Below, piece by piece: positions 33,840-59,054 of a stretch of 64,000 bases of DNA. Origin of the DNA: Candidatus Poribacteria bacterium (lineage in GTDB: Bacteria; Poribacteria; WGA-4E; WGA-3G); assembly GCA_965214095.1 (NCBI GenBank), contig OZ243938.1, positions 576,001 through 640,000 of the forward strand, written 5' to 3'. Under the pieces are notes generated by a model that saw only the letters and a list, made by a program, of their open reading frames with translations, searched no databases and was not told the DNA's origin. Every line of letters begins with the position of its first letter. Position 1 is the stretch's first letter. A program made the translations under genes and the position numbers.

Positions 33840-34103
33840 TTATCGCGTCTGAACATTATCACACGGTTTGAAACGAGAACCAACATATCCTCCGACAATA
33901 TGAGCAATCAGAACTGCAGGCCATAAGTAAATCAAAGCGGTTTGCCAATCCCAGTGAAGGATAAAACGTCTGACAAGAATGTTAAGCACAATTGGTATAT
34001 ATAGACACCTGCTCCAAGGACGACTGAATTTTTTGTAACGAACCCGATAAAATCCAAATGGAAAATGAACCAGAAAGGCAATAAAGGAAACTATTAGGTT
34101 CAT
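33840..34103 (-). CDS. Small membrane protein
   Basis: 87 aa, 3 TMs, co-directional in the cluster. Confidence 0.6.
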   Translation of the reverse strand: MNLIVSFIAFLVHFPFGFYRVRYKKFSRPWSRCLYIPIVLNILVRRFILHWDWQTALIYLWPAVLIAHIVGGYVGSRFKPCDNVQTR

Positions 34104-34110
34104 AAGAAAT

Positions 34111-34743
34111 CTATTTATGAAGTGTTTTCATATCCTTACGAAGTTTCGTCATTGCTGCTTCACTGTGGCTATCGTAATAACCGTAAATGTCTCCATTTGG
34201 AGCAACGAGAACAAACTTTCTACTATGTGGAAACACACCTTCATGTTGTGCAGCGGCTAATTTAAATCCGTTATTTGCCAATTGATAAATCTGATCCTTC
34301 TCACCAGTCAGAAAATGCCAGGTTTTTTCATCTGCTCCATAACGTTCAGCATAATTCGCAAGCACTTCTGATGTATCACGTTCTGGGTCAACGGTAAAGG
34401 AAACGAAGTTCACATCAGAGGAACTAAACTCTGATTGCAATGTTGCCATCTCTTTTGTCATTATAGGACAAATTGTAGGACAATTGGTAAAAATAAAATC
34501 CGCTACCCAGACTTTACCAGATAAATCAGACAAACTTATTTCGTCTCTCTGTTGGTTCGTCAATGTAAATTCTGGGACACTTGCGATTAGTTTCTCAGAA
34601 TCAGATTCATCTTTATTTTCAAACATTAACCACAAATTGAATAGTGCAATACTGATGATAATTAATCCTAATACAACCCAAGGAAGTGTGGATTTATCAA
34701 GTTTACGCCGCTTGGACTCAAGATTACTTTTCTGATGTTCCAT
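34111..34743 (-). CDS. SCO/SenC copper chaperone
   Basis: FIFTNCPTICP (CxxxC), VDPERDT, conserved His (PHS). Confidence 0.92.
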   Translation of the reverse strand: MEHQKSNLESKRRKLDKSTLPWVVLGLIIISIALFNLWLMFENKDESDSEKLIASVPEFTLTNQQRDEISLSDLSGKVWVADFIFTNCPTICPIMTKEMATLQSEFSSSDVNFVSFTVDPERDTSEVLANYAERYGADEKTWHFLTGEKDQIYQLANNGFKLAAAQHEGVFPHSRKFVLVAPNGDIYGYYDSHSEAAMTKLRKDMKTLHK

Positions 34744-34785
34744 ACTCTTTGTGTCTACTATTGATGGATTGTATTGCTACTTACC

Positions 34786-35124
34786 CTAATTCGGTGTGGT
34801 CTCAACGACCTTTTCAACAGGTTTTTCAATTGCATTGTGACGCGCATCTGTTGTCAAGTCAGGCATTAACATAATAACAAGGAAGACGCAGATGACAAAT
34901 GGTGTAATCACAATTGCAGATAAAGTGCGTTTTTCCAGATTTAGATGCATAAAATACGCAGCGACTAAGAATGCTTTACCGCAAGCCAATCCAATGAGTA
35001 GGATCGCTTTGATAACGGTCGAATACTCAGGTATTGCAACACCAACCTCAATGGCAGTTAACACAGTAAGCCACAAAAAAATAAACCAATACCTTGTATG
35101 TTTATGTTCTCCGTTCTGAGCCAT
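34786..35124 (-). CDS. Cytochrome c oxidase subunit IV family
   Basis: LTAIEV...KAFLVAAYFMHL motif. Confidence 0.85.
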   Translation of the reverse strand: MAQNGEHKHTRYWFIFLWLTVLTAIEVGVAIPEYSTVIKAILLIGLACGKAFLVAAYFMHLNLEKRTLSAIVITPFVICVFLVIMLMPDLTTDARHNAIEKPVEKVVETTPN

Positions 35125-35134
35125 TAATCTCCTC

Positions 35135-35794
35135 CTATAATAAATAGATAAATGTGAAAACCATGATCCAGATAAGATCTACAAAGTGCCAATAGAGTCC
35201 AACAATTTCTACTTCATGGTTAAATTCAGCAGTATATCTCCCACGCAGACCATGGATCAGGATAACTATCAGATATATTACACCACCAGTTACATGCAAT
35301 CCGTGGAATCCAGTGATAGCATAGAAAGTGGGACCAAACAGAGTAGAACCACTAATTGCAGCACCTGATAGTCCATGGTCTGGAATACCTGTCAAAGTTA
35401 ATCCGTGTTTGATTAGATGTGTCCATTCATACACTTGCAATCCAAGAAAAATAACACCACCTAAAATTGTTAATCCAAGATACATACACATCCGAGAGAC
35501 GTTACCCTTCTGAATTGACTCTAATGATTTAACCATAGTAACACTGCTGCAAATCAACAGAAATGTCATACCAGCGGTCAGATTTATGCCAAGAATCTCA
35601 CTGGGTGTCACCCATCCGACTACGCCTGCTCCAGCTCTGAGTGCTGCATAAGCCGCGAGCAAAGCACCAAATGACATGGTATCGCCAATGAGGAATATCC
35701 ACATGCCGAGTTTGCCAAGACTATCTGGTGTAAGCGATGGTTCGTATACGTCTTCAGTATGTTCTAAAGTGGTAGCTTGTTCCACTATACTCAA
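35135..35794 (-). CDS. ctaE: Heme-copper oxidase subunit III (short form)
   Basis: KLGMWIFL, TFLLICSS, ITGFHGLHV, GLYWHFVDLIW. Confidence 0.9.
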   Translation of the reverse strand: MSIVEQATTLEHTEDVYEPSLTPDSLGKLGMWIFLIGDTMSFGALLAAYAALRAGAGVVGWVTPSEILGINLTAGMTFLLICSSVTMVKSLESIQKGNVSRMCMYLGLTILGGVIFLGLQVYEWTHLIKHGLTLTGIPDHGLSGAAISGSTLFGPTFYAITGFHGLHVTGGVIYLIVILIHGLRGRYTAEFNHEVEIVGLYWHFVDLIWIMVFTFIYLL

Positions 35795-35887: not shown

Positions 35888-36757
35888 TTATTTTTTTCCT
35901 ATCTGAATTCGATTATTAGCTATGACAGACATTTCTTTGTCAATCTCAAACCCAATGAACTCTCGTCCCTCTTCAAGTGCTGCCCTGCCAGTTGAACCTG
36001 AACCAGCAAATGGATCACATACGATTGATCCTTCCGCAGAAAATATCCTAATGAGATGTCGCAGCAAAGGAACAGGTTTGGCAGCGATATGTCCGAACTT
36101 CTCACGCGGTTTGGGAACAGGAATCACTGTACCGGGAAATCTTTCGTTTTCAAGAACTGGATTAGATACATCAATGAGTCCCGTCTGATGTTGTAACCAA
36201 TTGTCAACGAATGTTCCTTCACGCGGAGATTGCGCTAATATAATCAACTCCATCTGTGGCTTAAGTTGCGGTGTCTTTCTACCACCTAATGCTTGAATAA
36301 TCCTCTCTTTTTCATCATTTGGAAGGTTGCGCTTCCGAACGAAATGGTCTTGTTTAAATGCTTTTGCTTGTCCTTCATATCGCCATGCTAACATATCACG
36401 AATTTCAAAACCGGCATCCTCTATGGCAATAGCTGCACGATGCGATAATCTTGGATGTGAAAAACAGAGAATAAACCCTCCAGGTTTGATTATCCTAAAC
36501 CATTCTTCAGCTATCGGTACCAGAAATCTGTATAGATTTTTACCTTGTTCCTTGTCAAATTTCATACCAACAGGCAGTCCACCAATAACACTTTTCTTTT
36601 GTCTGGATTTAATTTGTTGTTTGTCCCAGTTGTCATCCAATCCATCAAGGAAATAGGGTGGATCTGTTAATATCAGTGAAACAGTATGTGTGGCAATTTT
36701 GGACATCCCATTTCTACAATCAATGCATTCTATCCAAGAGTCGCCACTATTCTTCAT
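35888..36757 (-). CDS. Orphan N6A/N4C DNA methyltransferase (beta class)
   Basis: TDPPY catalytic motif N-terminal; H...KP..L and DPFAGSGST SAM-binding motif C-terminal. Confidence 0.9.
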   Translation of the reverse strand: MKNSGDSWIECIDCRNGMSKIATHTVSLILTDPPYFLDGLDDNWDKQQIKSRQKKSVIGGLPVGMKFDKEQGKNLYRFLVPIAEEWFRIIKPGGFILCFSHPRLSHRAAIAIEDAGFEIRDMLAWRYEGQAKAFKQDHFVRKRNLPNDEKERIIQALGGRKTPQLKPQMELIILAQSPREGTFVDNWLQHQTGLIDVSNPVLENERFPGTVIPVPKPREKFGHIAAKPVPLLRHLIRIFSAEGSIVCDPFAGSGSTGRAALEEGREFIGFEIDKEMSVIANNRIQIGKK

Positions 36758-36983
36758 TATGTTTTATGTCTCTATTTGCGCGTCTATAAGAATAGAAAAC
36801 ACTCCCACCGATGACACCAAACACAGTGAAAGGCATCGCCATCATAAACAGTACACTCCAATTGAATCCGCGTGCAATCGGTTCATCTAAGTTTTTACAT
36901 GCAGGACATGCATCAAGAGAAAGCGGTATAATTGCAACAATGAGTACAGTTATTAGTAAACTCAAGACCATTTTCCGTAACAT
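36747..36983 (-). CDS. Small exported/membrane protein with CPAC motif (cox-associated)
   Basis: Signal peptide, ACPACK, GFNWSVLFMMAMPF TM; start at ATG 36983. Confidence 0.65.
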   Translation of the reverse strand: MLRKMVLSLLITVLIVAIIPLSLDACPACKNLDEPIARGFNWSVLFMMAMPFTVFGVIGGSVFYSYRRANRDIKHNEE

Positions 36984-36994
36984 TAAAGTCTCCT

Positions 36995-37570
36995 TCAGGC
37001 GAAATACACTAAATAGTAAAGTACAGGCCAAAGTGCAACCACATAAATCCAATAGATAGTACAGGTCTCAACACCTGTGTGATTTTCAGATGAAAACCTT
37101 CCTGTCAACGACATACCAATGACAATTGCTAACCAAATTACTGCTCCTAATACATGAATAGCATGACAACCGATAAGCACATAAAACGTAGCACCATATA
37201 CACCAGATTGAAGCGTCAATCCTTTACCAATTAGTTGAATCCACTCACTACCTTGTATTACGAGAAAAAGCAGTCCTAATGCTCCAGTGAAAAGTAAGTA
37301 ATATCGTAGATACTTCACCTTATCAAGTTGAATTGATCGTAATGCTTGAAACATCGTAAAGCCGCTAATAATCAGAAGTCCAGTATTGATACCTGTTACC
37401 AACCGTGGAAGTTGAATATCAGCATGAGACAATGGAGGCCATGTAACATTCCCCATTCGATATACCAAGAATGTTCCAATCAGTCCTGCAAACAACATCG
37501 TCTCAGCACCCAGGAGTATTAATACTCCTAATTTGGCATTACTAAATGGGCGATTTTCAGCAATTTCCAT
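36995..37570 (-). CDS. Second heme-copper oxidase subunit III-like protein
   Basis: KLGVLILLGAETMLF, NTGLLIIS, GCHAIHV, YWIYV. Confidence 0.85.
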   Translation of the reverse strand: MEIAENRPFSNAKLGVLILLGAETMLFAGLIGTFLVYRMGNVTWPPLSHADIQLPRLVTGINTGLLIISGFTMFQALRSIQLDKVKYLRYYLLFTGALGLLFLVIQGSEWIQLIGKGLTLQSGVYGATFYVLIGCHAIHVLGAVIWLAIVIGMSLTGRFSSENHTGVETCTIYWIYVVALWPVLYYLVYFA

Positions 37571-37584: not shown

Positions 37585-37863
37585 TCATCCACGAACTCTG
37601 CGGTACCCTTTTTTTATTAAATTAACGACAAAAGCAATAAGGCCAGTCCTAATAATTATCTCAATAACGGCTGCACCTATAAGAAAAATACCGACCACGG
37701 CTGCGATAATTGTTGTAATTACTGAAACAAGTCTTTTTATGGAAGGTGATGCTTCAAAACCGACTACAAATCCTATCGTAGTAATTGCGAATAAGCCTAA
37801 GAAAATTACACCTAAAATAAGACCAATCTTCAGATTTCCTCTTCTACGTTCACGGTTGTCCAT
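37585..37863 (-). CDS. Small membrane protein
   Basis: 92 aa, 2 TMs, GGAG RBS. Confidence 0.6.
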   Translation of the reverse strand: MDNRERRRGNLKIGLILGVIFLGLFAITTIGFVVGFEASPSIKRLVSVITTIIAAVVGIFLIGAAVIEIIIRTGLIAFVVNLIKKGYRRVRG

Positions 37864-37874: not shown

Positions 37875-38807
37875 TTAAAAATGTATCTTATCTATTGCCA
37901 TCGTTATGAATATTAGTGGCAGATACAATAAAGATGCATAAAGCACATATCGTGCGGTTTTGACTGTAGGCCTTTTATCAAAATAGATACCACTTATCAA
38001 AAACATACCACCCACGAGTAGTGCTACCAGAAAATATATTCCACCGGATATATTGAAAAGAGTAGGTAGAAGACCTATACCAAAAAGTGCTATACAGTTG
38101 ATTACAATCTGACGACGTGTGCTCATTCCATCTGGATGTATAACAGGTAATAACTTTAATCCAGCATCTGCGTAATCCTGGCGATAAATAAATGCAATCG
38201 CCAGTGAGTGTGGTAGTTGCCAAAGAAATAGAATAGCGAACAATACACATGCAGAACCTGATATTTTACCCTGTGCTGCTACCCATCCTACAACAGGTGG
38301 TAACGCACCGGGGAACGCTCCAATTAGCGTACACAATGACGTACTACGTTTTAGTGGTGTATAGATAAACAGATAACTTACAACAATTAGAGAAATAATG
38401 AATCCACTCAACGGGTTTACAAAAGTCGTTAGGTATAACATTCCTCCTGTTGTGAGTAAAACACAAAAAATCAGTGCTTCCATTCCATGTATTCTTCCAG
38501 TAGGAAGCGGTCTGTGCTGCGTTCGCGCCATCAACGCATCAATGTCACGTTCAAGGTATTGGTTTAGACCTAACACACCTGCTGCAGTTAACCCCGCACC
38601 AATAATCGTGTGTCCAAATAACATCCAGTTCATTGCCCCTTGTGTGCCGAGATAGAAACCAGCAGCAGTCGTAACAAGAATCATCAATACCAGTCGTGGT
38701 TTGGTAAGTTCAATATAAGCATCAACACGTCTCATTAACACTGAGACTCTTGATGGTTGATCTACTGTATCACTGCCGTTAGGTATGGTTACTGTTGTTG
38801 AACGCAT
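37875..38807 (-). CDS. ctaB: Protoheme IX farnesyltransferase (heme O synthase)
   Basis: LTKPR, NQYLERDIDALMARTQHRPLPTG, YTPLKR, GALPP, WQLPH. Confidence 0.93.
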   Translation of the reverse strand: MRSTTVTIPNGSDTVDQPSRVSVLMRRVDAYIELTKPRLVLMILVTTAAGFYLGTQGAMNWMLFGHTIIGAGLTAAGVLGLNQYLERDIDALMARTQHRPLPTGRIHGMEALIFCVLLTTGGMLYLTTFVNPLSGFIISLIVVSYLFIYTPLKRSTSLCTLIGAFPGALPPVVGWVAAQGKISGSACVLFAILFLWQLPHSLAIAFIYRQDYADAGLKLLPVIHPDGMSTRRQIVINCIALFGIGLLPTLFNISGGIYFLVALLVGGMFLISGIYFDKRPTVKTARYVLYASLLYLPLIFITMAIDKIHF

Positions 38808-38811: not shown

Positions 38812-39756
38812 TTAATCTCTATCTATGACCGGTGTATTTGTATCAGGAATTTTTATCATCCTTGAAGTGTCTGTCAAACGGAAGATTTTCAATGTAATAA
38901 CAAAACTAATCGCTAACATAAGAGCACCGATAGCAACATGGCCTGTTGTCACAAGGTCCGTAAGTAGTGCTGATACCGTTTCTCCGAAGGCAGTTAGTCT
39001 TGTAATGTAAGCACCAGTTCCCAGCATCAACTGAATTGCAAGTAGACCAAGCAATAGCAGTGGGAATGTTTGTCCAATTTCTTGTGTTTGTACATCTGTA
39101 CTAAAGACGCGTCTGACCAATAAGATGATATGTAGTGTTACCAAGAATGCCAATAACAGATGGGCATCAAGACGGTTTCCAGTATGCCGTAATACTGCGC
39201 CAAAGATAAGCTGAACATATATCAGACACGTTGTTATCAGACTTAACCTTCGTAATTTCTTTGAGAGTATCTCATCAGTCTGTACTTCTGGTTCAATGCT
39301 ATGCCATGCTTGTGAGGTAAATAAACAAATGCCACACAATAATGATAAAAATGCTTGTGCCAGACACGCATGTATTATTGCAAAGTTCAGATTAAGTTCA
39401 GTTACTCTAAGTCCTCCGAGAACACCCTGCACACTGACACCAATGAGAGCAGCAAATCCAAGCCATTTTAACCACTTTCTGGAGTCTTTTATCAATATCA
39501 TAATGAACAAGGCAATCGTTAACAGACCTACAAGAGATCCCATCAAACGATGACTGTGTTCATATAGGATTCCACCTACCATCTCAGAAATCGGATACAG
39601 AAACATGTTGTAACCGAAAGTTGTGGGCCAATCTGGTACAGCTAATCCAGATTCAGTGCTTGTTACTATGCCTCCAATAACAATCAGTAAGAAAGTTGCT
39701 CCTGCCGTAATTATGGCAATTCTATATAACCAGGGACTATATATGGTTTGCTTCAT
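38812..39756 (-). CDS. ctaA: Heme A synthase (COX15/CtaA)
   Basis: GG.VT...SGLAVPDWP, EHSHR, QGVLGG, multiple conserved His. Confidence 0.9.
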   Translation of the reverse strand: MKQTIYSPWLYRIAIITAGATFLLIVIGGIVTSTESGLAVPDWPTTFGYNMFLYPISEMVGGILYEHSHRLMGSLVGLLTIALFIMILIKDSRKWLKWLGFAALIGVSVQGVLGGLRVTELNLNFAIIHACLAQAFLSLLCGICLFTSQAWHSIEPEVQTDEILSKKLRRLSLITTCLIYVQLIFGAVLRHTGNRLDAHLLLAFLVTLHIILLVRRVFSTDVQTQEIGQTFPLLLLGLLAIQLMLGTGAYITRLTAFGETVSALLTDLVTTGHVAIGALMLAISFVITLKIFRLTDTSRMIKIPDTNTPVIDRD

Positions 39757-39937: not shown

Positions 39938-41899
39938 TTAATCTCCTGTACTTGCAGGTGCATGTTCAGGTTGTGCCTGTGGTATCCAATCAGATTCTTC
40001 ACCGGGTACGCTGTATTCATAAGGACCACGATAGACAGTTGGGATCTGTACAAAGTTGCCGTGTGGAACTGGTGTCGGTGCTTCCCATTCCAATGTCGTA
40101 ACATGCCATGGATTCTTTTCAGCGACTTTACCTTTATAGATACTCCAGAAAAAGTTGAAAGCCAATATCAGTTGAACAGCGCCAAGTGTGAAAGCACTCA
40201 TCGTGATGAATATATTCATACCTTCAAATCCGCGTAGATGTTCAGTTAACATTGGATTATCAATACGCCGTCTGTGTAAGCCTACGCCGAGAATGTGCAT
40301 TGGGAAGAAGGTGCAATTAAATGCTATAAAGGTCAACCAAAAGTGAATTTTGCACAACGTGTCATTCATATAACGTCCATACATTTTGGGGAACCAGAAG
40401 ATAATTCCACCGAAGATTGCAAACAGACTACCACCAAATACTACATAATGAATATGTGCCACAATAAAGTATGTATCGTGTATAGCAATATCAACGGGTG
40501 TGTTTGCCATATAAATCCCACTAAGTCCACCAATTACAAACATAGATACGAATGCAATCGCATGGAGCATCGGTGTTGTAAATCGTATTGATCCACGGAA
40601 CATAGTACCAAGCCAATTAAATGTTTTTATAGCAGACGGCACAGCAATCAACATTGTAGTCGTCATGAAGAATGCACCCATTCCCGGACGCATTCCACTT
40701 TGGAACATGTGATGTCCCCAGACAATCCATCCCAAGAACGCAATTGCGATCATAGCATAGACCATTGAACGATATCCGAATACCGGTTTACGTGAAAAAA
40801 CAGGAATTAATTCAGAAGCAATACCCATTCCCGGTAATATAAGGACATAGACTTCGGGGTGTCCAAAGAACCAGAACAAGTGCTGCCATAGTAACGGGTC
40901 GCCACCACCTTCAGGTGTTGCCGAGAAGAATGTTGTTCCAGCGAGTCGATCAAAAATGAGAAGTGCTAAAGCAGAGGATAGGACTGGGAAAGCGAGAAGT
41001 AGGAGGATAGCAACGATGAAAAGTGCCCAGATAACGAGCGGAAGTCTGAAGAAAGTCATTCCTGGCGCACGCATGTTGATGATGGTTGTAATATAGTTAA
41101 TTGAACCAACAAGTGATGAAAAACCTTGTATTAATAGACTAATCGCCCATAAGTTCATTCCCCAACCCACACCTGTCCAAGCAGGATCAACCGATAACGG
41201 CGCGTATCCTGTCCATCCAGCAGAAGCATGACCTCCCGGCACGAAAAATCCGGAGACCATTACAACAGCTGCAAGAACTGCTAGCCAGAAAGAGAGCATG
41301 TTAAGAACTGGGAATGCCATGTCCCGCGTACCGATCATGAGTGGAATCAGGAAATTACCGAATGCCCCCACTAAAATTGGTACAACTACGAAAAACACCA
41401 TGACAGTCGCATGCATGGTGAATAGCATGTTATAGAATTCACCAGTCATGACCCCGCCCGGAATATATTGTTCAACCCATTCAGTTTCTTCGGATTCAAA
41501 GATACTCAACCACCAATTATCTGCCCAGGTCTTTGGTTCACCTGTTTCCTGAAATTCATCAGATACACCGATAATTGGGAACGGTTTCGCACCACGTCCT
41601 GGTTGTCCTTCAAGTTCCGGTATTTCAGGATATGCCAGTTGCCACCTAAATAGCATCGCAAGACCACCACCAAGAAATAGCATTATTAACCCGTAAACCA
41701 GGAACTGTTTGCCAATCATCTTGTGGTCAAGTGAAAAGATATATTTTCTTAGAAAACCTTCTTCATGATGATGTGCATGTGCATCGTCGTGGTCACCATT
41801 ATGCTCAGGTGCGTGTTCAACTGCATCATGATCTTCATGTGCAGCATCATGACCTTCATCATTGTCGTGTTCATGTGATTTATTATCGTTTTCCTGCAT
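39938..41899 (-). CDS. ctaD: Cytochrome c oxidase subunit I, A1 type, His-rich N-terminus
   Basis: SLDHKMIG, TMHAT, FGHPEVY, WGHHMF, VAHIHYV. Confidence 0.95.
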   Translation of the reverse strand: MQENDNKSHEHDNDEGHDAAHEDHDAVEHAPEHNGDHDDAHAHHHEEGFLRKYIFSLDHKMIGKQFLVYGLIMLFLGGGLAMLFRWQLAYPEIPELEGQPGRGAKPFPIIGVSDEFQETGEPKTWADNWWLSIFESEETEWVEQYIPGGVMTGEFYNMLFTMHATVMVFFVVVPILVGAFGNFLIPLMIGTRDMAFPVLNMLSFWLAVLAAVVMVSGFFVPGGHASAGWTGYAPLSVDPAWTGVGWGMNLWAISLLIQGFSSLVGSINYITTIINMRAPGMTFFRLPLVIWALFIVAILLLLAFPVLSSALALLIFDRLAGTTFFSATPEGGGDPLLWQHLFWFFGHPEVYVLILPGMGIASELIPVFSRKPVFGYRSMVYAMIAIAFLGWIVWGHHMFQSGMRPGMGAFFMTTTMLIAVPSAIKTFNWLGTMFRGSIRFTTPMLHAIAFVSMFVIGGLSGIYMANTPVDIAIHDTYFIVAHIHYVVFGGSLFAIFGGIIFWFPKMYGRYMNDTLCKIHFWLTFIAFNCTFFPMHILGVGLHRRRIDNPMLTEHLRGFEGMNIFITMSAFTLGAVQLILAFNFFWSIYKGKVAEKNPWHVTTLEWEAPTPVPHGNFVQIPTVYRGPYEYSVPGEESDWIPQAQPEHAPASTGD

Positions 41900-43758: not shown

Positions 43759-43860
43759 TATAGTGAATTATAAATATAAGTTGACACTTTCGACCCACGG
43801 TAGGCGAGGTTTCCTAACCTCGCCGATGCAGAGTGTTCAAGCAATTTCAAATCTACTATA
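43759..43860. mobile_element. IS630-type MITE with GTAG REP-like hairpin
   Basis: TATAGTGAATT...ACTATA; its end supplies the TAG stop of the ABC ATPase. Confidence 0.72.
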
Positions 43861-45798: not shown

Positions 45799-45933
45799 TT
45801 TATTCTCCTTTTTCAACGCACAATGATTTATCCATCGCTCAAATACATGCGATTCTCAACAACCAAAGTAGCGTATCGTTTAATAAATTATAGGATGAGG
45901 AACATTGTCGTTCCTACACACCATTCCATAAAA

Positions 45934-50014: not shown

Positions 50015-50029
50015 GGTTCTAATCTCCTA

Positions 50030-51976: not shown

Positions 51977-52011
51977 GAGATTTAAAATCTAATTTATGTC
52001 AAGAAGTCAGG

Positions 52012-52128
52012 TAATGCCATTTCTAATAGAAAATGCCGCATTTTTGTAGCATAAACTGCCAGTTTGTGCCGTCGTTCAAGGCATTCATAACAAATGTTAA
52101 TGAGATAAACATTTATAGAAATGGTATA
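52012..52128. mobile_element. MITE (CCATTTCT/AGAAATGG ends) with a different GTAG hairpin
   Basis: TAATGCCATTTCT...AGAAATGGTATA; GTAGCATAAACTGCCAGTTTGTGC core. Confidence 0.6.
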
Positions 52129-52130
52129 AC

Positions 52131-52895: not shown

Positions 52896-52974
52896 CGTTC
52901 TACTCCTCAATTTAATAATTAAACTTTTTATTATATTAACACCTTAAGATTTGAATTGGCAAACCCTAAAAAAC

Positions 52975-53000
52975 AACTATCACGGATATCCGTGATAGTT
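52975..53000. promoter_or_regulatory. Perfect 26-bp palindrome, putative regulator site
   Basis: AACTATCACGGATATCCGTGATAGTT; the 16-bp core recurs at 59156. Confidence 0.6.
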
Positions 53001-53355
53001 AAGGTCTGAAACTTTTCTTGATATATTCAAGAAGTTCCTCTTGTTCATCAACGCTGAGATAATAGTGAAACGCTGGCATATCGTTTTTTCCATCTCGTAT
53101 ACTATTCAGTAATTGTTCATCTTCATGCATCAACCATAGAACGTTGTCTGTTAGGTCTGCCGGGTCTAATTTTTTAAACCGTCCTATTCTCCCATTGCCT
53201 TCACCACTGTGCCCGTGGCATCCGGCACAATATCTTGCATAATGATACTCAACTTCAGTCGGATACTTTGTGCTTGGGTCAATTTGTTTCCCTAACCAGA
53301 TGAAACCGTTTAACCAAACTAAGACCATGACGATAATAATCAATAGATGTTTCAA
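52999..53355 (-). CDS. Small monoheme cytochrome c
   Basis: CAGCH, GKNDMPAF. Confidence 0.85.
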   Translation of the reverse strand: MKHLLIIIVMVLVWLNGFIWLGKQIDPSTKYPTEVEYHYARYCAGCHGHSGEGNGRIGRFKKLDPADLTDNVLWLMHEDEQLLNSIRDGKNDMPAFHYYLSVDEQEELLEYIKKSFRP

Positions 53356-53392: not shown

Positions 53393-56300
53393 CTAACGTC
53401 CTAATGATATGAGATAATCCCGGACTAACCGAATCTGTTTCTCAGCATCATCGCCGGCATAACCCGGAACAGCCATGTGTTGTCCACCTGCGATTGGCCA
53501 TGCCTGTGGCATTGCAGTGCCTTTCTGGAAACTTTGTGGATCTTTCATCCAATCTATGAGCCAATCTGCTTTGAGTCGCGTTTTTGCCAAGGATAGATCG
53601 GGTCTACCAGCTTTGTCGCTACCTGCGGGAATCACCTCACCCTGTGATGGATGACAGGAATCGCATTTCAGTGCATCAAAAATCTGTTTACCGACTTGAA
53701 GTTCAGCACGGGTTGACGTTGGTTGTTCTATGGTTTCATAGGGGAAAGGTTCATTGTCTAATGTTGAGAAGTATTTCACAAGTGTCGTTGCATCTTCATC
53801 CGACATATCAAATGTTGGCATACGAACTTTGAGACCGTAACGGATGTCTGAAGGAGCTTTGAGGAAATCAAATAACCATTCAGGATAAACCCGCGCACCT
53901 TCTGCTTGAAGCGTAGGTGGGGCAAGCTGCTTCGCAGTGATCTGATCTAAACCCTCGTGTGAAACAATAATGTTTTCATAATCACCACCCTCACCCTCAA
54001 TTATGTGACATCCAGTGCAGTTGTATTTTTTCACTACTCTTCTGCCAGCGTCTATTTGATTCTGTTTTTCAACGCGTTCTGGTTCAACTGCATGCTCAAA
54101 TATATAATTCAATGGATATGGTTGTGGTTGGAAACTCTTCAATAAAACAGCGATAGCCTTGGCATCTTCTACATCGTTTTTCAGATTTTGGAACACTGGC
54201 ATACGAGAAGCAATCCGACGCGTTTCGTATCTTCTTGGGTCTGTAAGTTTACCAATTGTCCAACCGTGCCAACTATGTTCAACATCTTCTTCTAAGGTAT
54301 CACCGAAGTCAAGCTCATCATATAGTTTCGCACCAAATTCACCGAGATCAGCACCGACCTTGGATTCATTCTCAAATCCTGGGATCTCATGGCAACCGAA
54401 ACATCCGTAAGTCCGGACAAGTTTTTCACCTTCCTGTGCATCAACTTCACCGATTGAATTGGATAGAGGCGATGGTGTTGTTTCTTGGAGACTCATTAGA
54501 TATGCAACTACATTATCAAGTTCACGGTTGCTTAAACGCAGACTCGGCATTGATGTATCGGGGTCATATTCTCTCGGATTTTCTATCCATTTACGGAGGT
54601 AACTTGGTTTCACTTTGTTACCTACACTGTCAAGAGCAGGTGCAAAATCACTGCCTAATCCATCTACAGTATGACAGGACAGACATCCTACCGTCTTCAC
54701 AGTTTCTTCACCAGCACTGATCGCACTTTCAGACTTTGAATATGTTTCCTGCGATTCATCCAAAGATGGGTCTTTCATTCTCGCAAGATAGGCTGCAATT
54801 GATTTTACCTCATCAACGATACGTAAAACATCATCTTTTGCATAAGTATATGATGTACCATCATCTGCAGTTAGAACATAGTTCGCATCTGTTTCTGCAA
54901 CAACGCCTGTCCGCTGACCACCATTCTTAAAGTAGACAAGCTGGGTCATGCCTTCTACAGGAAAGAAATTCGGCATCGTAGTTTCTGGTAGGTAGGCTTC
55001 CGGTTGTTTAATCCATTCTTCAAGCCATTTGACATCGTCAACCTTACTGCCAACTTTGCTCAGTGATGGACCAACCTTGCCAAGTTTCTCAAGAGAACTG
55101 TATCCTTCAACTGCATGACACCCATGACATCCAAGTGTTTCAAATAGATCCATACCTTTTGAAAGAGTAGGTGCATAGTCCACTGGAATGTTAGTTTCTG
55201 GGTCAACATGATCTAACTTCATCACCCCATCATGACAACGTCTACAATTTGATTCCATATATCCTTTTTTCTCTGTAGATGTCATTCCAGTCTCTTTATC
55301 CATACCAAGCACAGGTGTAAGCCAAAATTCTGCATGTGTTAGTGCATGTGCGGATTTTGCTGTCAAGCCGTGTCCTTGTCCACCATGACAAGGTGTACAC
55401 CCAAATCTTTCAACGGGGTGTTTTGCAAGTAACACATCACGATCTGGATGCGTTTGCAGGACATCACGGTATCCCGTTTCATAAGATATTTCAACTTCAC
55501 CAAACACACCTGTATCAGTGAACGTGAGCAATCCATCTTCTGACAATTCATATTCATCAGGTTCTGCATCAAAACCATCAATAACTATTGTCTCACTACC
55601 AAGTTTCACCTTTGGATGTTTCAGTTGATGTGTTTCAAAGTTCTCTCCATCACCATCTACTTCAAACGTCTCCTGTGCCTCAGTATCATAACCGCTTCTA
55701 TCAACCGAGAAGTGACAAGTCGCACATCGATCAGCAGTATAATCGAACTCTTCAAGATAATACTGAACGATAGTACGCGTCTCTCTAAATGGATTTTCTA
55801 AGAGACTTCCAAGGAAGGTGCGTTTGATGCCACCGACATCTGCTAACTTCTCTTCAAGTCGTGTAACTGCATCAAATTGTTTCTTGATCGTATCAAGTGA
55901 ATCGAGTGCTTGTTGTGCTGCAGCAATCCCATCTGTAATATCTGTGTCAGTAGACTTGTTTTTTTGTGCAATGAGATATGTTGAAAGTGCTTTTGCTGGG
56001 TCATTATTGGATAGGTAAAATTCTGCAAGTGATTTATTTTCATCTGCATATTCTTTTTGTGCTTTCAGGACTGCAAAGGTGAGTTCACCTTCAATCCGTT
56101 TTTCAAATTCGTCTAATTTTTCTTTCCACTTTTGGACTTCTTCTGTCTCTTCACCATGTGCTACATGTAGACTATTCTGATATTTATAATTGATTGCATC
56201 GGATTTGCTCTGTTCAAACTTGCGTTCTTGCAATGCTTCATCCAACGCCACCTTTTTCGTCTCAACGACATTCTCTAATTTACTTAATTCTTTCGTATCA

Positions 56301-56533
56301 AACTCAGGATCGGAGGGTTTTTCAGGTAAATTATTCTTTGCATGTTCCAATTCAGTCTTTGTCTTTTCATATTCATATTGGTAAAACTGTTGTTGGATTT
56401 CTTTCCAAGGTCTTCGAGTGATCATCTCATCCCAGAAACCCCATACGGTAACCAAGCCTAACAGTGCTGACAGAATAAAGAACAAAACAGCATAAGATTT
56501 TTTTTCTGCTGGAATATCTTTGTTGTTCCTCAC
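53393..56533 (-). CDS. Large membrane-anchored octaheme cytochrome c of the Rieske/cyt b complex
   Basis: Eight CxxCH motifs (CATCH, CTPCH, CRRCH, CHGCH, CLSCH, CFGCH, CTGCH, CDSCH); N-terminal TM and coiled coil. Confidence 0.88.
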   Translation of the reverse strand: MRNNKDIPAEKKSYAVLFFILSALLGLVTVWGFWDEMITRRPWKEIQQQFYQYEYEKTKTELEHAKNNLPEKPSDPEFDTKELSKLENVVETKKVALDEALQERKFEQSKSDAINYKYQNSLHVAHGEETEEVQKWKEKLDEFEKRIEGELTFAVLKAQKEYADENKSLAEFYLSNNDPAKALSTYLIAQKNKSTDTDITDGIAAAQQALDSLDTIKKQFDAVTRLEEKLADVGGIKRTFLGSLLENPFRETRTIVQYYLEEFDYTADRCATCHFSVDRSGYDTEAQETFEVDGDGENFETHQLKHPKVKLGSETIVIDGFDAEPDEYELSEDGLLTFTDTGVFGEVEISYETGYRDVLQTHPDRDVLLAKHPVERFGCTPCHGGQGHGLTAKSAHALTHAEFWLTPVLGMDKETGMTSTEKKGYMESNCRRCHDGVMKLDHVDPETNIPVDYAPTLSKGMDLFETLGCHGCHAVEGYSSLEKLGKVGPSLSKVGSKVDDVKWLEEWIKQPEAYLPETTMPNFFPVEGMTQLVYFKNGGQRTGVVAETDANYVLTADDGTSYTYAKDDVLRIVDEVKSIAAYLARMKDPSLDESQETYSKSESAISAGEETVKTVGCLSCHTVDGLGSDFAPALDSVGNKVKPSYLRKWIENPREYDPDTSMPSLRLSNRELDNVVAYLMSLQETTPSPLSNSIGEVDAQEGEKLVRTYGCFGCHEIPGFENESKVGADLGEFGAKLYDELDFGDTLEEDVEHSWHGWTIGKLTDPRRYETRRIASRMPVFQNLKNDVEDAKAIAVLLKSFQPQPYPLNYIFEHAVEPERVEKQNQIDAGRRVVKKYNCTGCHIIEGEGGDYENIIVSHEGLDQITAKQLAPPTLQAEGARVYPEWLFDFLKAPSDIRYGLKVRMPTFDMSDEDATTLVKYFSTLDNEPFPYETIEQPTSTRAELQVGKQIFDALKCDSCHPSQGEVIPAGSDKAGRPDLSLAKTRLKADWLIDWMKDPQSFQKGTAMPQAWPIAGGQHMAVPGYAGDDAEKQIRLVRDYLISLGR

Positions 56534-56769: not shown

Positions 56770-56822
56770 ATACGAGTACAATGTATACAGAAAGACAATG
56801 TTATACTAACTAACATCTACAT

Positions 56823-57689
56823 TTAGATATTGAACCAAGGAGACACCCAAACGTATTTTATGTTCAATCCTAAACGTAGTATCATTTTAATCGGTAGTGC
56901 CATCATACATAAGAACAGAGATGATACGATGACATATCGAATCAATCCAAGTTCTTGTAGAAATTTGCTGCTTTTACCTTTCCAAAAATAGAAAACTGGA
57001 CCAAGTGCGAAATATCCTGCAACTACCGCAAATCCAAAGAAATTCGCCGTCATCTCATCGCGGATGCCAAAGAGATATGATAGATTTACATTTGTTAATG
57101 GGACAATTTTATGTGGATCCCAATATTCCCACGGCATAAATATATTCCAACCAGGTCCCCTTAAGAAAGTGCCAACAATCATCAGGACAATCCATAGGAT
57201 AATAAAACCAAAGCAGAATACACCCAAGGCAAACGGACGTTCCTTAATTGTATAATAGCCTTTTCCTTTGGGATTGATGTCAATATAGGGGATTGCTATT
57301 AGACCTACAATGATAAGTCCAGGTAAAACCACACCCGCAATCCAAGGATCAAAATAAACCAACATTTCTTGAAGGGCAAGGAAGTACCATGGGGCTTTAG
57401 ATGGATTAGGTGTTTTGGCCGGATCACTTATCTCTTCAAGTGGTGCATCAATCATAATTGACCACACCGCTAGGATAAGCATGATGATAATCGCACAGAC
57501 AAATTCATTACGACAGAGATAAGGCCAGACATATACTTTATCGTTAAGTGCTGCATCTGAAGGGACACCTGTTCTATCTGTTTGACGTGCTTGCCTGTAT
57601 GCTAACCACATAAAGAATGGAATTAAGAAAAGCATTGCCAAAATTGGCACATTATCGGGTTTCTCTATCAGTAATAGAATATTCTCCAT
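56823..57689 (-). CDS. Cytochrome b C-terminal subunit (subunit IV/PetD-like, extended)
   Basis: DAPLEE..DP..TPNPSKAPWYF...QEMLVYFDPW, PYID. Confidence 0.85.
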   Translation of the reverse strand: MENILLLIEKPDNVPILAMLFLIPFFMWLAYRQARQTDRTGVPSDAALNDKVYVWPYLCRNEFVCAIIIMLILAVWSIMIDAPLEEISDPAKTPNPSKAPWYFLALQEMLVYFDPWIAGVVLPGLIIVGLIAIPYIDINPKGKGYYTIKERPFALGVFCFGFIILWIVLMIVGTFLRGPGWNIFMPWEYWDPHKIVPLTNVNLSYLFGIRDEMTANFFGFAVVAGYFALGPVFYFWKGKSSKFLQELGLIRYVIVSSLFLCMMALPIKMILRLGLNIKYVWVSPWFNI

Positions 57690-57772
57690 ATCTATATCCT
57701 GTCTCCTTCAAATGTGTATTCGTATTTTTGTAAAATATAAGTCTGATTATGTTTATCCAGATTCCAAATGTC

Positions 57773-58561
57773 TTATAGTGGACCAGAAATACCACCATCT
57801 TTACGGACACGCCAGAAATGTAACGCCATCAATAGACTCGCAACAAGAGGAACTGCAATACAATGCAAGATATAGAACCTTAACAATGTTGATGGACCGA
57901 CAATAGTTCCTCCAAGTAATGCAAATCTCACATCATTTGATTGCGTGATAATATCTGCGGGGGCAAAAGGACCTTCATGTCCTAATACTGGTGTAGCACG
58001 AGCCATGTTCGTTCCAACGGTAACTGCCCAATATGCAAGCTGGTCCCACGGAAGTAAATATCCTGTAAAACTCAGGAAAAATGTAATAAGTAATAGAATT
58101 ACGCCGACTGCCCAATTAAACTCACGCGGCTTTTTGTATGAACCTGTCAAGAAAACCCTGAACATGTGTAGCATGACAGAAATAACCATACCATGCGCAG
58201 CCCACCTGTGCATGTTACGCAGAAGCATACCAAAAGGAATGTCAAATTCAAGTGCCTGTACATCTCGAAAAGCATATTCAGCAACAGGTCTATAATAGAA
58301 CATCAGGAGGACACCTGTAACTGCTGTCACAAGGAACATGAGAAAGGTGATACCACCCATACACCATGTAAATCTGAAATTCAAGGCATGACGCGAAATA
58401 CGGGGAGGATGTAAATGAAGCCATACATTCTGTAGGACTTGAAGTGTGAAACGACGTCCAGTATCTTCGTAACCGTGGCGAAAAATAGACTTCCAAATAT
58501 CGGAATTCGTAATCTTTTCTTTTAAACCTTTACGTTCTTCGTTCATTCTTTTCCTTTTCAA
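57773..58561 (-). CDS. petB: Cytochrome b6-like N-terminal subunit
   Basis: WCMGGITF, TGVLLMFYY, RNMHRW..H, H.FRVF, FTGYLLPWDQ, four heme His. Confidence 0.9.
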   Translation of the reverse strand: MKRKRMNEERKGLKEKITNSDIWKSIFRHGYEDTGRRFTLQVLQNVWLHLHPPRISRHALNFRFTWCMGGITFLMFLVTAVTGVLLMFYYRPVAEYAFRDVQALEFDIPFGMLLRNMHRWAAHGMVISVMLHMFRVFLTGSYKKPREFNWAVGVILLLITFFLSFTGYLLPWDQLAYWAVTVGTNMARATPVLGHEGPFAPADIITQSNDVRFALLGGTIVGPSTLLRFYILHCIAVPLVASLLMALHFWRVRKDGGISGPL

Positions 58562-58568
58562 TCTATTG

Positions 58569-59054
58569 TTAGACTTTCAAAGATGCACCAGAGTCACTCC
58601 ATTGACCTTTTTCACCTAAAAACTTAACAGATTTATCTATTTGAAGTTGTCCATCCTCAGCCAAGGTAATCTTCACACGCTCAAGCGGTCGTGGTGCCGG
58701 TCCTTCATAGTTTATACCATCACGATCAAAACCGCTACCGTGGCAAGGACATTTAAATTTGTTTTCTGATGAGAGCCAACGCGGAGTACATCCTAAGTGC
58801 GTGCAAGTGGTTAGTAATGCATAAAACTCTCCATCTTCGCGGCGAACAATCCACACACCAAAAGGTTCTTTCTTGAATTTTTCGCTTACACTACCCGCTG
58901 GATATTCAGCAGGAAAACCAGCTTTAAAGACAGATGAAGGTTCATACAATACACGCGGGTATAAATAACGCACTAAACCCGGACCGAAACATAAACCGAG
59001 TGCAGCCGTAAAACTACCCCATCCAAGTGTATTGAAAAATGCTCGTCTTGACAA
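58569..59054 (-). CDS. petC: Rieske 2Fe-2S subunit
   Basis: Tat SRRAFF; CTHLGC and CPCHGS; GPAPRPL. Confidence 0.92.
   Translation of the reverse strand: MSRRAFFNTLGWGSFTAALGLCFGPGLVRYLYPRVLYEPSSVFKAGFPAEYPAGSVSEKFKKEPFGVWIVRREDGEFYALLTTCTHLGCTPRWLSSENKFKCPCHGSGFDRDGINYEGPAPRPLERVKITLAEDGQLQIDKSVKFLGEKGQWSDSGASLKV

Follow-up and report, generated by a model that had tools for sequence, protein, structure and literature searches.

A conserved respiratory gene neighbourhood in Candidatus Poribacteria joins complex III, a Nitrospira-type bd-like module and an aa3 cytochrome c oxidase

In Candidatus Poribacteria, a sponge symbiont, the chromosomal respiratory genes within the 64-kb stretch of DNA analysed here (the window) form a cluster of four neighbouring units on one strand: complex III, a bd-like module, an ABC-2 exporter and an aa3 oxidase. 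The "second oxidase" of this cluster is recognizable by sequence as a Nitrospira-type bd-like (OR-N) module, that is, as one of a known type. The reading that we favour as a whole, with moderate confidence, is that of a branched aerobic chain in which the bd-like module is a second oxygen reductase and the units are probably transcribed separately. In such a chain the electrons of quinol would pass through complex III to c-type haems and cupredoxins, and these carriers would hand them on to one of two ends, aa3 or a bd-like module supplied from the periplasm. The branch through the bd-like module is inferred, and its reduction of oxygen is put forward as a hypothesis; nor does this reading require that complex III, aa3 and the bd-like module form a stable supercomplex.

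Pfam and NCBIfam searches confirmed, gene by gene and position by position, the minus-strand list drawn up by a sequence-only reading of the window, and all the features described below lie on that strand. The total of 14 CxxCH motifs given by the same reading is exact (8+1+2+1+2 over five cytochromes), and since the number per protein was the same in all the orthologues examined (71/71, 74/74, 78/78, 76/76 and 76/76 for the octahaem, the 118-aa monohaem, the 513-aa dihaem, the 258-aa monohaem and the NxrC-like proteins, respectively), these counts are not due to chance. The relatives compared were the best 80 of 560 confirmed stretches from one genome scan, all 80 of them from Poribacteria, whose CydA-like proteins are 69-94% identical to that of the window. 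Gene order was collinear in 80/80 of these best loci from the Rieske gene to the start of ctaA, the span that the comparison covers within Poribacteria; the three blocks are therefore genuinely linked, and the unlinked blocks in relatives that the reading had named as evidence against itself are not what the loci show. Each neighbour pair from Rieske through coxI was seen in 64 to 78 loci among the best 80 of 560, and the coxI-ctaA pair in 40; by our reading of the table, the missing genes all fall at incomplete locus ends.

The complex III block opens with a Rieske [2Fe-2S] subunit (161 aa, 58569..59054; PF00355, E 2e-11) bearing the motifs CTHLGC and CPCH, with an orthologue in at least 64 loci among the best 80 of 560. 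Cytochrome b is split. Its N-terminal half is a cytochrome b6-type subunit (57773..58561; PF00033, E 4e-44) whose closest solved structures are the chloroplast and cyanobacterial b6 proteins (6rqf_I, E 2.9e-49), the Cys of its wCmGG motif being aligned with yCLGG of b6. The C-terminal half, extended by extra C-terminal helices, is a subunit IV-like protein (288 aa, 56823..57689; PF00032, E 8.7e-7) that matches the NCBIfam models ExtQ (1.6e-15) and cytb6_f_IV (8e-6) and shows APWY at the Qo-motif position. These genes are followed by that of a membrane-anchored octahaem cytochrome c (1046 aa, 53393..56533), composed of an N-terminal helix, a coiled region, four close-set haems and four class-I cytochrome c domains, with Pfam matches to Cytochrom_C, Cytochrome_CBB3 and Cytochrome_C7, and by the last gene of the unit, encoding the 118-aa monohaem cytochrome c (52999..53355; PF13442, E 1e-12). 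By homology, the block encodes a b6-type Rieske/cytochrome b complex, with the octahaem cytochrome as its c-type subunit, that should oxidize quinol and load the periplasmic haems.

The next unit is no canonical cytochrome bd but a Nitrospira-type OR-N module, made up of one CydA homologue with 14 helices, two membrane cytochromes c (one dihaem, one monohaem), a protein resembling alternative NxrC and a pair of cupredoxins. Cupredoxin 1 (52131..52910) joins an amicyanin-like type-1 copper domain to a C-terminal CarboxypepD_reg (Ig-like) domain, an architecture shared by its paralogue (31% identity, E 3e-32), cupredoxin 2 (272 aa, 44998..45816; AF2 pLDDT 84.7). Pfam support for both was weak (E about 3e-3 or no match), but the calls are upheld by the fold search, in which cupredoxin 2 retrieved Cupredoxin_1 4hcf, amicyanin and plastocyanin (Foldseek, E 2e-5 to 1e-3), and by the invariant His/Cys/His/Met set (n=38 sequences for cupredoxin 1; H156, C198, H201 and M204 in cupredoxin 2). 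The membrane-anchored dihaem cytochrome c (513 aa, 48473..50014) matches Cytochrom_C and the TIGR02603 haem-binding domain, and contains tandem small beta mini-domains and, by hydropathy, N-terminal hydrophobic helices. The 258-aa membrane-anchored monohaem cytochrome c (47667..48443), found with Pfam and having three hydrophobic helices by hydropathy, is the predicted subunit of the CydA-like protein: complex prediction scored this pair 0.71, while the best of three controls scored 0.00. The mark used, reached by 116/157 solved complexes and 2/215 mismatched pairs, holds roughly for runs with our own alignments; these runs agree in 42% or more of their contacts, with a pLDDT of 77 or above for the cytochrome. 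The alternative-NxrC-like protein (576 aa, 45934..47664; PF09459, E 7.5e-17; TIGR03477, E 6.6e-27) consists of a dihaem c domain, an EB_dh/DMSO-reductase-type-II gamma haem-b domain and one C-terminal helix, and its structure matches include 6h5l_B (E 6.2e-43) and NxrC (7b04_C, E 1.8e-9).

The CydA-like protein itself (50030..51976), which matches PF01654 in its N-terminal part only (E 1.8e-18), likely starts at Met16 (coordinate 51931), contains 14 helices besides a signal-like one and lacks CxxCH. In a Foldseek search with its AF2 model (pLDDT 87.4), each of the ten best matches was a CydA chain (E 1.9e-7 to 9.4e-6). H75 and H281 align with H21 and H186 of the Geobacillus enzyme, each kept in 39/41 family members, and E162 aligns with E108 (34/41). 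In contrast, the canonical proton-channel/haem-region Glu (Geobacillus E101, E. coli E99) is Tyr in 38/41 sequences of the family, and no alignable counterpart was found for the Met that is the second ligand of haem b558 or for the ligand of the third haem. The quinol-binding Q-loop was not recognizable either, the alignments to canonical CydA ending near residue 290. The nearest named relatives are Nitrospira proteins (45-47% identity), a quick tree placed the poribacterial clade as sister to a Nitrospirota clade (SH-aLRT 88), and the nearest ESM Atlas clusters are from Nitrospirota. While the Nitrospirota OR-N oxidases are thought to be CydAA' pairs, the poribacterial loci contain a single CydA homologue, with no second CydA-like gene within 10 kb in 80/80 of the best 80 of 560 loci.

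OR-N proteins have been proposed to be cytochrome c-oxidizing O2 reductases (bioRxiv 10.1101/2021.01.16.426971, PMC10839748, PMC12342949); in the parts of the literature available to us the function of the family is described as unconfirmed (PMC10839748, PMC3578206, PMC6606698, PMC12342949), oxygen reduction being not demonstrated for any member (PMC10839748, PMC3578206, PMC12342949). An alternative, which we consider unlikely, denies the bd-like module the role of terminal oxidase. The module would instead connect carriers of the periplasm (c-type haems, cupredoxins) reversibly to the quinone pool, in the manner of an alternative complex III, or would hold a periplasmic molybdoenzyme at the membrane through the NxrC-like protein. 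Both roles were proposed, in the available text of PMC3578206 and PMC6606698, for the homologous cluster of Nitrospina, Nitrospira and Kuenenia (an alternative NxrC, mono- and dihaem cytochromes c, two cupredoxins and a 14-helix bd-like protein), which in nitrite oxidizers and anammox bacteria was taken to serve reverse electron flow by connecting to the quinone pool, and not to be an oxidase. The poribacterial module has this same gene set of nitrite-oxidoreductase regions and fits what the accessible sections of PMC6606698 say of the N. moscoviensis bd-like_3/alt_NxrC_2 cluster (a CydA-like protein, two membrane cytochromes c and an NxrC-like protein with two haems c and one helix). The homology of the EB_dh domain to NxrC, the Tyr substitution and the lack of a nearby CydA' partner also favour such a role, and a gene for the molybdenum-cofactor protein MoeA is present in the same window (10634-11836). 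However, family searches of the 64-kb window detected genes for neither nitrite oxidoreductase nor any other molybdoenzyme, a quinol-binding loop is not recognizable, and the module is placed between complex III and aa3, as expected of an oxidase gene. Poribacteria are heterotrophs or mixotrophs with no obvious need to drive electrons backwards from a donor of high potential; nor did the excerpts of the literature retrieved attribute a nitrite oxidoreductase or molybdoenzyme to them. Were this alternative true, the cluster would comprise two quinol-cytochrome c routes and only one oxidase, aa3.

Beyond the bd-like module lie the genes of a DrrA-like ABC transporter ATPase (43856..44773; PF00005, E 3.9e-35; TIGR01188, E 2e-73), next to the same neighbours in 74 loci among the best 80 of 560, and of a DrrB-like ABC-2 type permease (42962..43744; PF01061, E 1.6e-35; TIGR01247, E 7.4e-55). 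In the cox block, coxII (41975..42883; TIGR02866, E 1.8e-41; motifs HSF and CAELCGFGHGGM) encodes a CuA site without a fused cytochrome c, and coxI (39938..41899; PF00115, E 3.2e-150; TIGR02891, E 2e-185) an A-type subunit with the motifs GHPEVY, HHM, HIHYV and DMAFP and a His/Asp/Glu-rich N-terminal tail. They are followed by ctaA (haem A synthase, 38812..39756; PF02628, E 9.6e-21), ctaB (haem O synthase, 37875..38807; TIGR01473, E 1.8e-80, above the curated cut-off), a short five-helix coxIII (copy a, 36995..37570; PF00510, E 3.5e-20), a second coxIII (copy b, 35135..35794; PF00510, E 8.7e-16; CtaE/CyoC-like in NCBIfam, E about 1e-32), a prokaryotic coxIV (34786..35124; PF03626, E 5.1e-13) and a SCO1/SenC copper chaperone with a CPTIC motif (34111..34743; PF02630, E 5.7e-30). 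The run is not uninterrupted, as had been claimed: an unrelated N6/N4 DNA methyltransferase gene (35888..36757; PF01555, E 1.7e-34), with a GC content of 0.405 similar to that of its neighbours, sits between the two coxIII genes, and the stretch also holds three small membrane ORFs absent from the earlier list and lacking Pfam and NCBIfam matches. These are a 92-aa ORF with two helices by hydropathy (37585..37863), one with CPACK (36747..37052) whose true start is probably an internal Met past the coxIII stop, and a hydrophobic one of 87 aa (33840..34103). Genes on the same strand continue past both ends, from 22477 to 63776. By family matches and motifs, the cox block encodes a proton-pumping aa3 cytochrome c oxidase of the A type, together with assembly factors for its haem A (CtaA, CtaB) and its copper (SCO); of the two cytochrome c-fed terminal oxidases originally proposed this one is bona fide, while the other belongs to the OR-N family discussed above.

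The units are probably transcribed separately, because the complex III block ends in a strong terminator-like hairpin (52974..53001; 12-bp stem followed by a T run), which overlaps the 118-aa cytochrome gene at its stop, and because relatives carry insertions at its borders. Among the best 80 of 560, unrelated genes were inserted in 9/75 loci between the octahaem and 118-aa cytochrome genes and in 12/75 between the latter and cupredoxin 1; they include genes for a dicarboxylate symporter, binding proteins and an FGE-sulfatase-domain protein. A promoter-like site with an extended -10 (52962-52933) lies downstream of the hairpin, both elements being consensus matches only. Promoter-like matches were not enriched but rarer than in shuffles (40 vs 48.5 and 25 vs 35.0), so the unit map rests mainly on one hairpin and the insertions.

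This organization bears on the proposal, drawn from adjacency only, that complex III forms one physical branched supercomplex with both the bd-like module and aa3, whose outputs would differ in affinity (low and high) or in what they reduce (O2 and NO). We regard this as quite unlikely. The strict conservation of order speaks for it, the octahaem subunit could act as a wire, and the CuA domain of CoxII carries a 67-aa insertion (residues 196-262) that resembles a repeat of the dihaem cytochrome (39% identity to residues 341-403; E 5e-10, 28-protein database), so that the two might serve docking in common; for N. moscoviensis, a supercomplex of complex III with a bd-like protein was proposed in the available text of PMC6606698. 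However, adjacency is not assembly, the insertion cannot be essential, being present in just 7/68 complete CoxII orthologues, and the hairpin and inserted genes favour separate units. The NO-reducing output finds no counterpart in the genes, as nothing NO-reductase-like was found and the CoxI motifs are A-type. It is very improbable that the bd-like module reduces or detoxifies another substrate such as NO or peroxide, or serves extracytoplasmic metal or sulphur oxidation via cupredoxins and haems. For this reading, side activities towards NO and peroxide are known of canonical bd oxidases (cited in the part of PMC10839748 available), a manganese oxidizer expresses OR-N proteins (Murali et al., preprint bioRxiv 10.1101/2021.01.16.426971, in part) and the NCBIfam SoxX model matches portions of both the octahaem and the dihaem cytochrome; but this SoxX similarity is generic to class-I cytochrome c domains and Pfam and NCBIfam revealed no dedicated substrate-oxidizing enzyme gene in the cluster.

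In summary, the arrangement is a real and conserved respiratory neighbourhood of Candidatus Poribacteria, but a largely familiar one. The idea of such a supercluster is less new than it was taken to be, because complex III had already been described as encoded beside bd-like oxidases in Nitrospira moscoviensis (PMC6606698, in its accessible sections). Of the original proposal, the linkage, the aa3 output and the potential for branching stand: the set is rich in periplasmic c-type haems and copper carriers that could split the electron flow.

The minus-strand genes between 59054 and 33840 form a real and conserved cluster, which the sequence-only reading had itemised correctly save for one methyltransferase gene. 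ORF listing and family scans upheld its gene list. The complex III block has genes for the Rieske protein, for cytochrome b6 and a protein like subunit IV, for a cytochrome c of 1046 aa that carries eight CxxCH motifs, and for a monohaem cytochrome c. The bd-like block (44998-52910) begins and ends with a cupredoxin gene; between these lie, in order, the genes for the CydA-like protein, for a dihaem and then a monohaem cytochrome c, and for a further dihaem cytochrome c joined to an EB_dh haem-b domain of the NxrC/EbdC type. Next come a pair of genes for an ABC ATPase and an ABC-2 permease, and then the cox block, with CoxII, CoxI, CtaA and CtaB, subunit III in two short copies, subunit IV and SCO; all of these genes are on the minus strand. 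The total of 14 CxxCH motifs was likewise confirmed by count. Contrary to the claim of an uninterrupted run, the subunit III genes are separated by an N6/N4 DNA methyltransferase gene (35888-36757), and there are three small hydrophobic ORFs as well; the run is thus same-strand, but with unrelated genes within it, and it extends past both of the ends first assigned to it. ORF 36747-37052 was considered as a piece of coxIII and dropped, as neither the Pfam nor the NCBIfam scan supported it. In the NCBIfam scan the CydA-like protein, CtaA and both cupredoxins matched no family, and a search of the whole window against Rfam at gathering thresholds gave no matches. All parts of the cluster belong to known families, and the placement of complex III beside bd-like modules has precedent.

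The CydA-like protein was used to scan one genome per species, which yielded 560 confirmed stretches, and the best 80 of these 560 were used for comparison; all 80 derive from Candidatus Poribacteria or from MAGs of the same kind, with CydA-like identities of 69-94%. When all window proteins were compared by tblastn with these loci (each comprising the CydA-like match and up to 10 kb on either side), gene order and orientation were unchanged in 80 of 80 over the region covered, from the Rieske gene to the start of ctaA. The blocks are therefore linked in close relatives, so that the outcome which the sequence-only reading had named as refuting it, unlinked blocks in such relatives, is not borne out. 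Each neighbouring gene pair from Rieske to CoxI was seen in 64 to 78 of the 80 loci and the CoxI-CtaA pair in 40; by inspection of the tblastn table, all missing pairs fall at cut-off locus ends. The CxxCH count was constant in all orthologues examined, namely those of the octahaem cytochrome (71/71), the monohaem cytochrome of the complex III block (74/74), the dihaem cytochrome (78/78), the monohaem membrane cytochrome (76/76) and the NxrC-like protein (76/76). As a separate observation, one locus (L003, 16316-17116) carries a cupredoxin 2 orthologue with an in-frame stop, either a pseudogene or a sequence error.

This neighbourhood is conserved, yet it is not one obligate operon. A hairpin with a 12-bp stem followed by a T run (53001-52974) overlaps the stop codon of the monohaem cytochrome gene that closes the complex III block (52999-53355), and a divergent poribacterial clade has unrelated genes of the same strand at this border. 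The gap between the octahaem cytochrome gene and this monohaem gene exceeds 700 nt in 9 of 75 loci, where a sodium:dicarboxylate symporter gene is found. The gap from the monohaem gene to cupredoxin 1 exceeds that length in 12 of 75 loci, where the inserted genes encode an FGE-sulfatase/MORN protein besides one or two periplasmic binding proteins, and the gap between the two ABC genes does so in 6 of 74, where a D12 DNA methyltransferase and a winged-helix protein are found (locus L064, 18203-19890). Because of the hairpin and these inserted genes, a single 25-kb operon was dropped as an explanation. By consensus match, a promoter-like site with an extended -10 element follows the hairpin, ahead of cupredoxin 1. 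Matches to the sigma-70 consensus were fewer than in shuffled sequences (40 versus 48.5 and 25 versus 35.0); as they are no commoner than in shuffles they carry no weight, and they were not used to place promoters.

The spacers have features of their own. REP-like intergenic hairpin repeats with the core GGTTTCCTAACC gave 13 matches with at most one mismatch in the window, against 0.15 expected (positions 855, 897, 31823, 39849, 39880, 43808, 56601, 56637, 56673, 56715, 59284, 59486 and 59604), and 10 of the 13 lie within, or at the edge of, spacers of the respiratory cluster, which are longer in the window than in locus L001 because of them. Their consensus is ACGGTAGG-NNNN-GGTT/TCCT/AACC-N'N'N'N'-CC, the middle of the stem covaries among copies and the MFE ranges from -11 to -26 kcal/mol; the exact core was present in 11 of the 80 poribacterial loci. 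These repeats may act on mRNA stability or may simply be mobile. The 2.2-kb spacer upstream of the Rieske gene (59055-61292) contains such repeats and two short ORFs, one of them a fragment that matches the F5/8 type C domain, and looks like an insertion or a gene remnant; in L001 the upstream gene, for a PPC-domain protein, lies only 273 nt from the Rieske gene. A perfect 31-nt inverted repeat with a 24-nt spacer occupies 44893-44978, between cupredoxin 2 and the ABC ATPase gene. Solitary DNA methyltransferase genes occur inside the respiratory cluster both in the window (N6/N4 type) and in L064 (D12 type), and Pfam recognised no restriction enzyme beside the window's copy.

Directly downstream of the cluster, on the same minus strand, is a run of unusual genes (26314-33806). 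Besides a 636-aa protein that combines a universal-stress domain with three PCP_red domains and a rubredoxin-like one, they encode a PQQ-type beta-propeller, an Mrp/NUBPL P-loop ATPase, a PCP_red protein of 172 aa, a pair of nucleotidyltransferase genes' products and a radical SAM-SPASM-PCP_red protein. Elsewhere in the window, an IS630-type transposase (8996-9851, minus strand) is divided into two ORFs, with HTH_Tnp_IS630 and DDE_3 domains, and is probably frameshifted or subject to programmed frameshifting. On the plus strand, genes for a caspase-domain protein and an adjoining prokaryotic JAB-domain protein, with a ThiS-like ubiquitin-fold protein nearby (18155-19812 and 17027-17302), constitute a possible ubiquitin-like conjugation or defence set.

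The CydA-like protein (648 aa) matched PF01654 in its N-terminal part only (residues 65-342, E 1.8e-18). Its AlphaFold2 model, based on an alignment of 41 family members (pLDDT 87.4), shows a signal-like helix and 14 further long helices, and the top 10 matches of this model in a Foldseek search of the PDB were all CydA chains (probability 1.00, E 1.9e-7 to 9.4e-6, target-normalised TM 0.48-0.58). H75 falls on H21 of Geobacillus CydA, a haem ligand equivalent to E. coli His19, and in the profile-to-PDB alignment H281 falls on H186, a ligand of haem b558; each is His in 39 of 41 family members. At the proton-channel positions, E162 falls on Geobacillus E108 (E. coli E107) and is Glu in 34 of 41 members, and the position of Geobacillus E101 (E. 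coli E99) is occupied by Tyr155, which is Tyr in 38 of 41. H184, H435, H585, E93, E426 and K447 are also conserved in the 41-sequence alignment. Both sequence and profile alignments to six solved CydA proteins end at about residue 290, with the Q-loop not alignable, and past this residue the model continues in consecutive helices without a long periplasmic loop. Alignments and model agree in predicting that the quinol-binding Q-loop is absent, which matches the account of bd-like proteins in PMC3578206.

The family to which this protein belongs comprises 1040 clusters at 50% identity (E up to 1e-3). Its named relatives in a profile search were Nitrospira proteins with 45-47% identity, its closest ESM Atlas clusters were from Nitrospirota, and a quick midpoint-rooted tree placed the poribacterial clade next to a Nitrospirota clade (SH-aLRT 88). 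Given its predicted fold, its residues, the lack of a Q-loop and these Nitrospira relatives, we identify it, from sequence and modelling, as the "bd-like" protein of nitrite oxidisers, the OR-N family of Murali et al. (2021; preprint 10.1101/2021.01.16.426971). The likeness to OR-N includes the N-terminal CydA fold, the His19 equivalent, the missing quinol loop, a helix number near 14 (as in N1 and N2), an operon that also encodes alternative electron donors, and a CydA devoid of haem-c motifs; CxxCH is absent from our protein, which separates OR-N from OR-C. The preprint presents Nitrospirota OR-N1/N2 under a CydAA' pair model, with OR-N2 often alone; the window differs in its single CydA-like gene and in the Tyr at the E99 position. 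No second CydA-like gene (CydA') was found in the window, nor within 10 kb on either side in any of the 80 loci.

In the NxrC-like protein, the haem-b domain matched Kuenenia NxrC (7b04_C, E 1.8e-9) and the dihaem domain matched chain B of 6h5l (E 6.2e-43), which a 2026 preprint gives as an entry for Kuenenia HAO. Cupredoxins 1 and 2 are paralogues (31% identity, E 3e-32), and H156, C198, H201 and M204 are invariant in 38 cupredoxin sequences covering both. The C-x2-H-x2-M spacing of these ligands is that of amicyanin. The only PDB match to the cupredoxin 2 sequence was a ribosomal protein at E 0.57, discarded as chance, and a fold search was used instead: the AF2 model of the domain (pLDDT 84.7) matched the Bacillus Cupredoxin_1 protein 4hcf, amicyanin and plastocyanin in Foldseek. 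The modelled cupredoxin fold and the His/Cys/His/Met set identify both as predicted type-1 (blue) copper proteins. Complex prediction for the monohaem membrane cytochrome with the CydA-like protein scored 0.71, the best of three controls scoring 0.00; 116 of 157 solved complexes reach the mark applied to such scores, as do 2 of 215 mismatched pairs, counts that are only rough as own alignments were used. At least 42% of contacts agreed between runs, the partner pLDDT was at least 77, and the predicted interface takes in the conserved E426 region. These models support binding between this cytochrome and the CydA-like protein.

As described by Lücker et al. (2013; PMC3578206), the NXR regions of Nitrospina, Nitrospira and Kuenenia have in common a 14-helix bd-like protein, in which helices take the place of the Q-loop, together with an alternative NxrC, two cupredoxin-like proteins and two cytochromes c, one of them monohaem and the other dihaem. 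For N. moscoviensis, Mundinger et al. (2019; PMC6606698) report a bd-like_3 cluster in which two cytochromes c are membrane-bound and the alternative NxrC has one helix and two haem-c motifs. The window has the same parts list, part for part, as the module of Nitrospina gracilis, Nitrospira and Kuenenia stuttgartiensis, including a 14-helix CydA-like protein without a Q-loop and a haem-b protein of NxrC type that likewise has one helix and two haem-c motifs. In contrast to those modules, the poribacterial copy is flanked by complex III and aa3 genes, and its host is a sponge symbiont not known for nitrite oxidation; among the 63 ORFs of the 64-kb window, Pfam detected no genes for NXR alpha, beta or gamma, a TorD-like chaperone or other molybdoenzymes. 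A separate N. moscoviensis region, according to PMC6606698, has complex III_1 beside bd-like_1/bd-like_2, alt_nxrC_1 and c-type cytochromes, for which a complex III-IV supercomplex was proposed. The poribacterial cluster is similar in joining a Rieske/cytochrome b complex to a bd-like protein, an NxrC-like protein and several cytochromes c, whereas Nitrospira has no haem-copper oxidase and the poribacterial cluster adds a complete aa3 with its assembly genes and an octahaem subunit in complex III. No account of this cluster in Poribacteria turned up in our literature searches, although the phylum table of Murali et al. may already list Poribacteria for OR-N.

The complex III encoded here resembles cytochrome b6f/b6c-type complexes in its Rieske protein, which has both cluster motifs (CTHLGC at residue 84 and CPCH at residue 102), and in its cytochrome b, which is split into b6 and subunit IV. 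The b6 half had its best match in chloroplast/cyanobacterial b6 (6rqf_I, E 2.9e-49), compared with about 1e-27 for bc1 cytochromes b, and the Cys of its wCmGG aligns with the Cys of yCLGG in b6, which we take to be the haem-ci attachment site. The c subunit is different: the block encodes neither cytochrome f nor a mono- or dihaem c1-type subunit, and instead has a membrane-anchored octahaem protein of 1046 aa (53393-56533), in which four close-set haems precede four class-I cytochrome c domains. Subunit IV also differs, being longer (288 aa) and carrying APWY at the expected position of the Qo motif, canonically PEWY.

The aa3 oxidase set is complete. CoxI (PF00115, E 3.2e-150) has GHPEVY at 346, HHM at 396 and HIHYV at 482, which we take to be the A-type oxidase motifs with the haem and CuB ligands. 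CoxII has a CuA site with the HSF and CAELCGFGHGGM motifs and no haem-c motif, and the CuA pattern is present in every complete orthologue with a true CoxII match; this site marks the predicted enzyme as a cytochrome c oxidase rather than a quinol oxidase. Haem A and copper supply is represented by CtaA (PF02628), CtaB (TIGR01473, above the curated cut-off) and SCO (PF02630, with a CPTIC motif), and two subunit III paralogues of five helices and subunit IV, together with SCO and CtaA, complete the set. Within the CuA domain, CoxII has a 67-aa insertion (residues 196-262; 42100-42298) that shares 39% identity with residues 341-403 of the dihaem cytochrome whose gene adjoins the CydA-like one (E 5e-10, 28-protein database). 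An insertion of similar size was found in 7 of 68 complete CoxII orthologues (L001, L002, L010, L049, L052, L061 and L068), and its scatter across clades, as judged by CydA identity, suggests that it was gained or lost repeatedly. CoxI itself has an insertion of about 60 aa between its first two helices, and an N-terminal tail (residues 1-62; 41714-41899) with 13 His and 18 Asp/Glu in 62 residues, which is possibly metal-binding. Comparable clusters, in which a quinol:cytochrome c oxidoreductase and an A-type oxidase are encoded together, include the actinobacterial bcc-aa3 and the alternative complex III-caa3 clusters. They share with the present one the placement of genes for a quinol-oxidising complex beside those of an aa3-type oxidase; the present one differs in having a bd-like module and an ABC exporter in between and a CoxII to which no cytochrome c is fused.

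In Nitrospira and Nitrospina the presumed terminal oxidases are bd-like (OR-N) proteins, which in anammox bacteria are encoded within the nitrite-oxidoreductase clusters. In the poribacterial cluster, homology shows a b6-type complex for quinol oxidation, an aa3 oxidase for oxygen reduction and a set of haem and copper carriers that face the periplasm. The bd-like module would take electrons from these carriers and reduce oxygen, providing a second output, probably of higher affinity. We somewhat favour this assignment of the module as a putative oxygen reductase; in PMC10839748 and PMC12342949, oxygen reduction is given as unconfirmed for the whole OR-N/bd-like family. A distinctly less probable alternative is that the module serves as a link to the quinone pool or as an enzyme anchor, as proposed for the homologous cluster in PMC6606698 and PMC3578206. 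In its gene set the window does resemble bd-like_3 more than bd-like_2, the putative oxidase, and the Tyr at the E99 position agrees with such a role, whereas the 64-kb window has no adjacent nitrite oxidoreductase and the module is placed between complex III and aa3. The single physical supercomplex of complex III, bd-like module and aa3 that the sequence-only reading had envisaged seems unlikely to us. Its suggestion of a NO-reducing output was dropped, because CoxI carries A-type oxidase motifs and family scans found no Nor-like protein.

A broader reading, which we regard as speculative and on balance improbable, concerns the module that work on nitrification and anammox has tied to NXR (the bd-like protein, alternative NxrC, two membrane cytochromes c and two cupredoxins). 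On this reading it would be a terminal oxidase of general purpose that draws electrons from cytochrome c and cupredoxin, and Poribacteria would have it without NXR, wired between an octahaem b6-type complex III and aa3. CoxII in some lineages has acquired a mini-domain related to repeats of the dihaem cytochrome, and the three assemblies may therefore share a docking element and form a switchable supercomplex, fit for sponge tissue that alternates between oxic and anoxic states.

The added value of these observations is modest, and consists in finding the "nitrite-oxidiser" module in an NXR-free setting. A lineage in which the complete module has no nitrite oxidoreductase nearby, and has complex III on one side and a normal oxidase on the other, amounts to a natural experiment, and the retention of the module under these circumstances argues for a general respiratory job. 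The six-gene unit is compact and conserved, and offers itself for expression and assay; textbook bioenergetics would remain unchanged unless an activity of the module were shown. For sponge biology, the cluster suggests two oxygen-facing routes in the abundant Poribacteria, a feature that would matter once pumping ceases and the tissue becomes anoxic.
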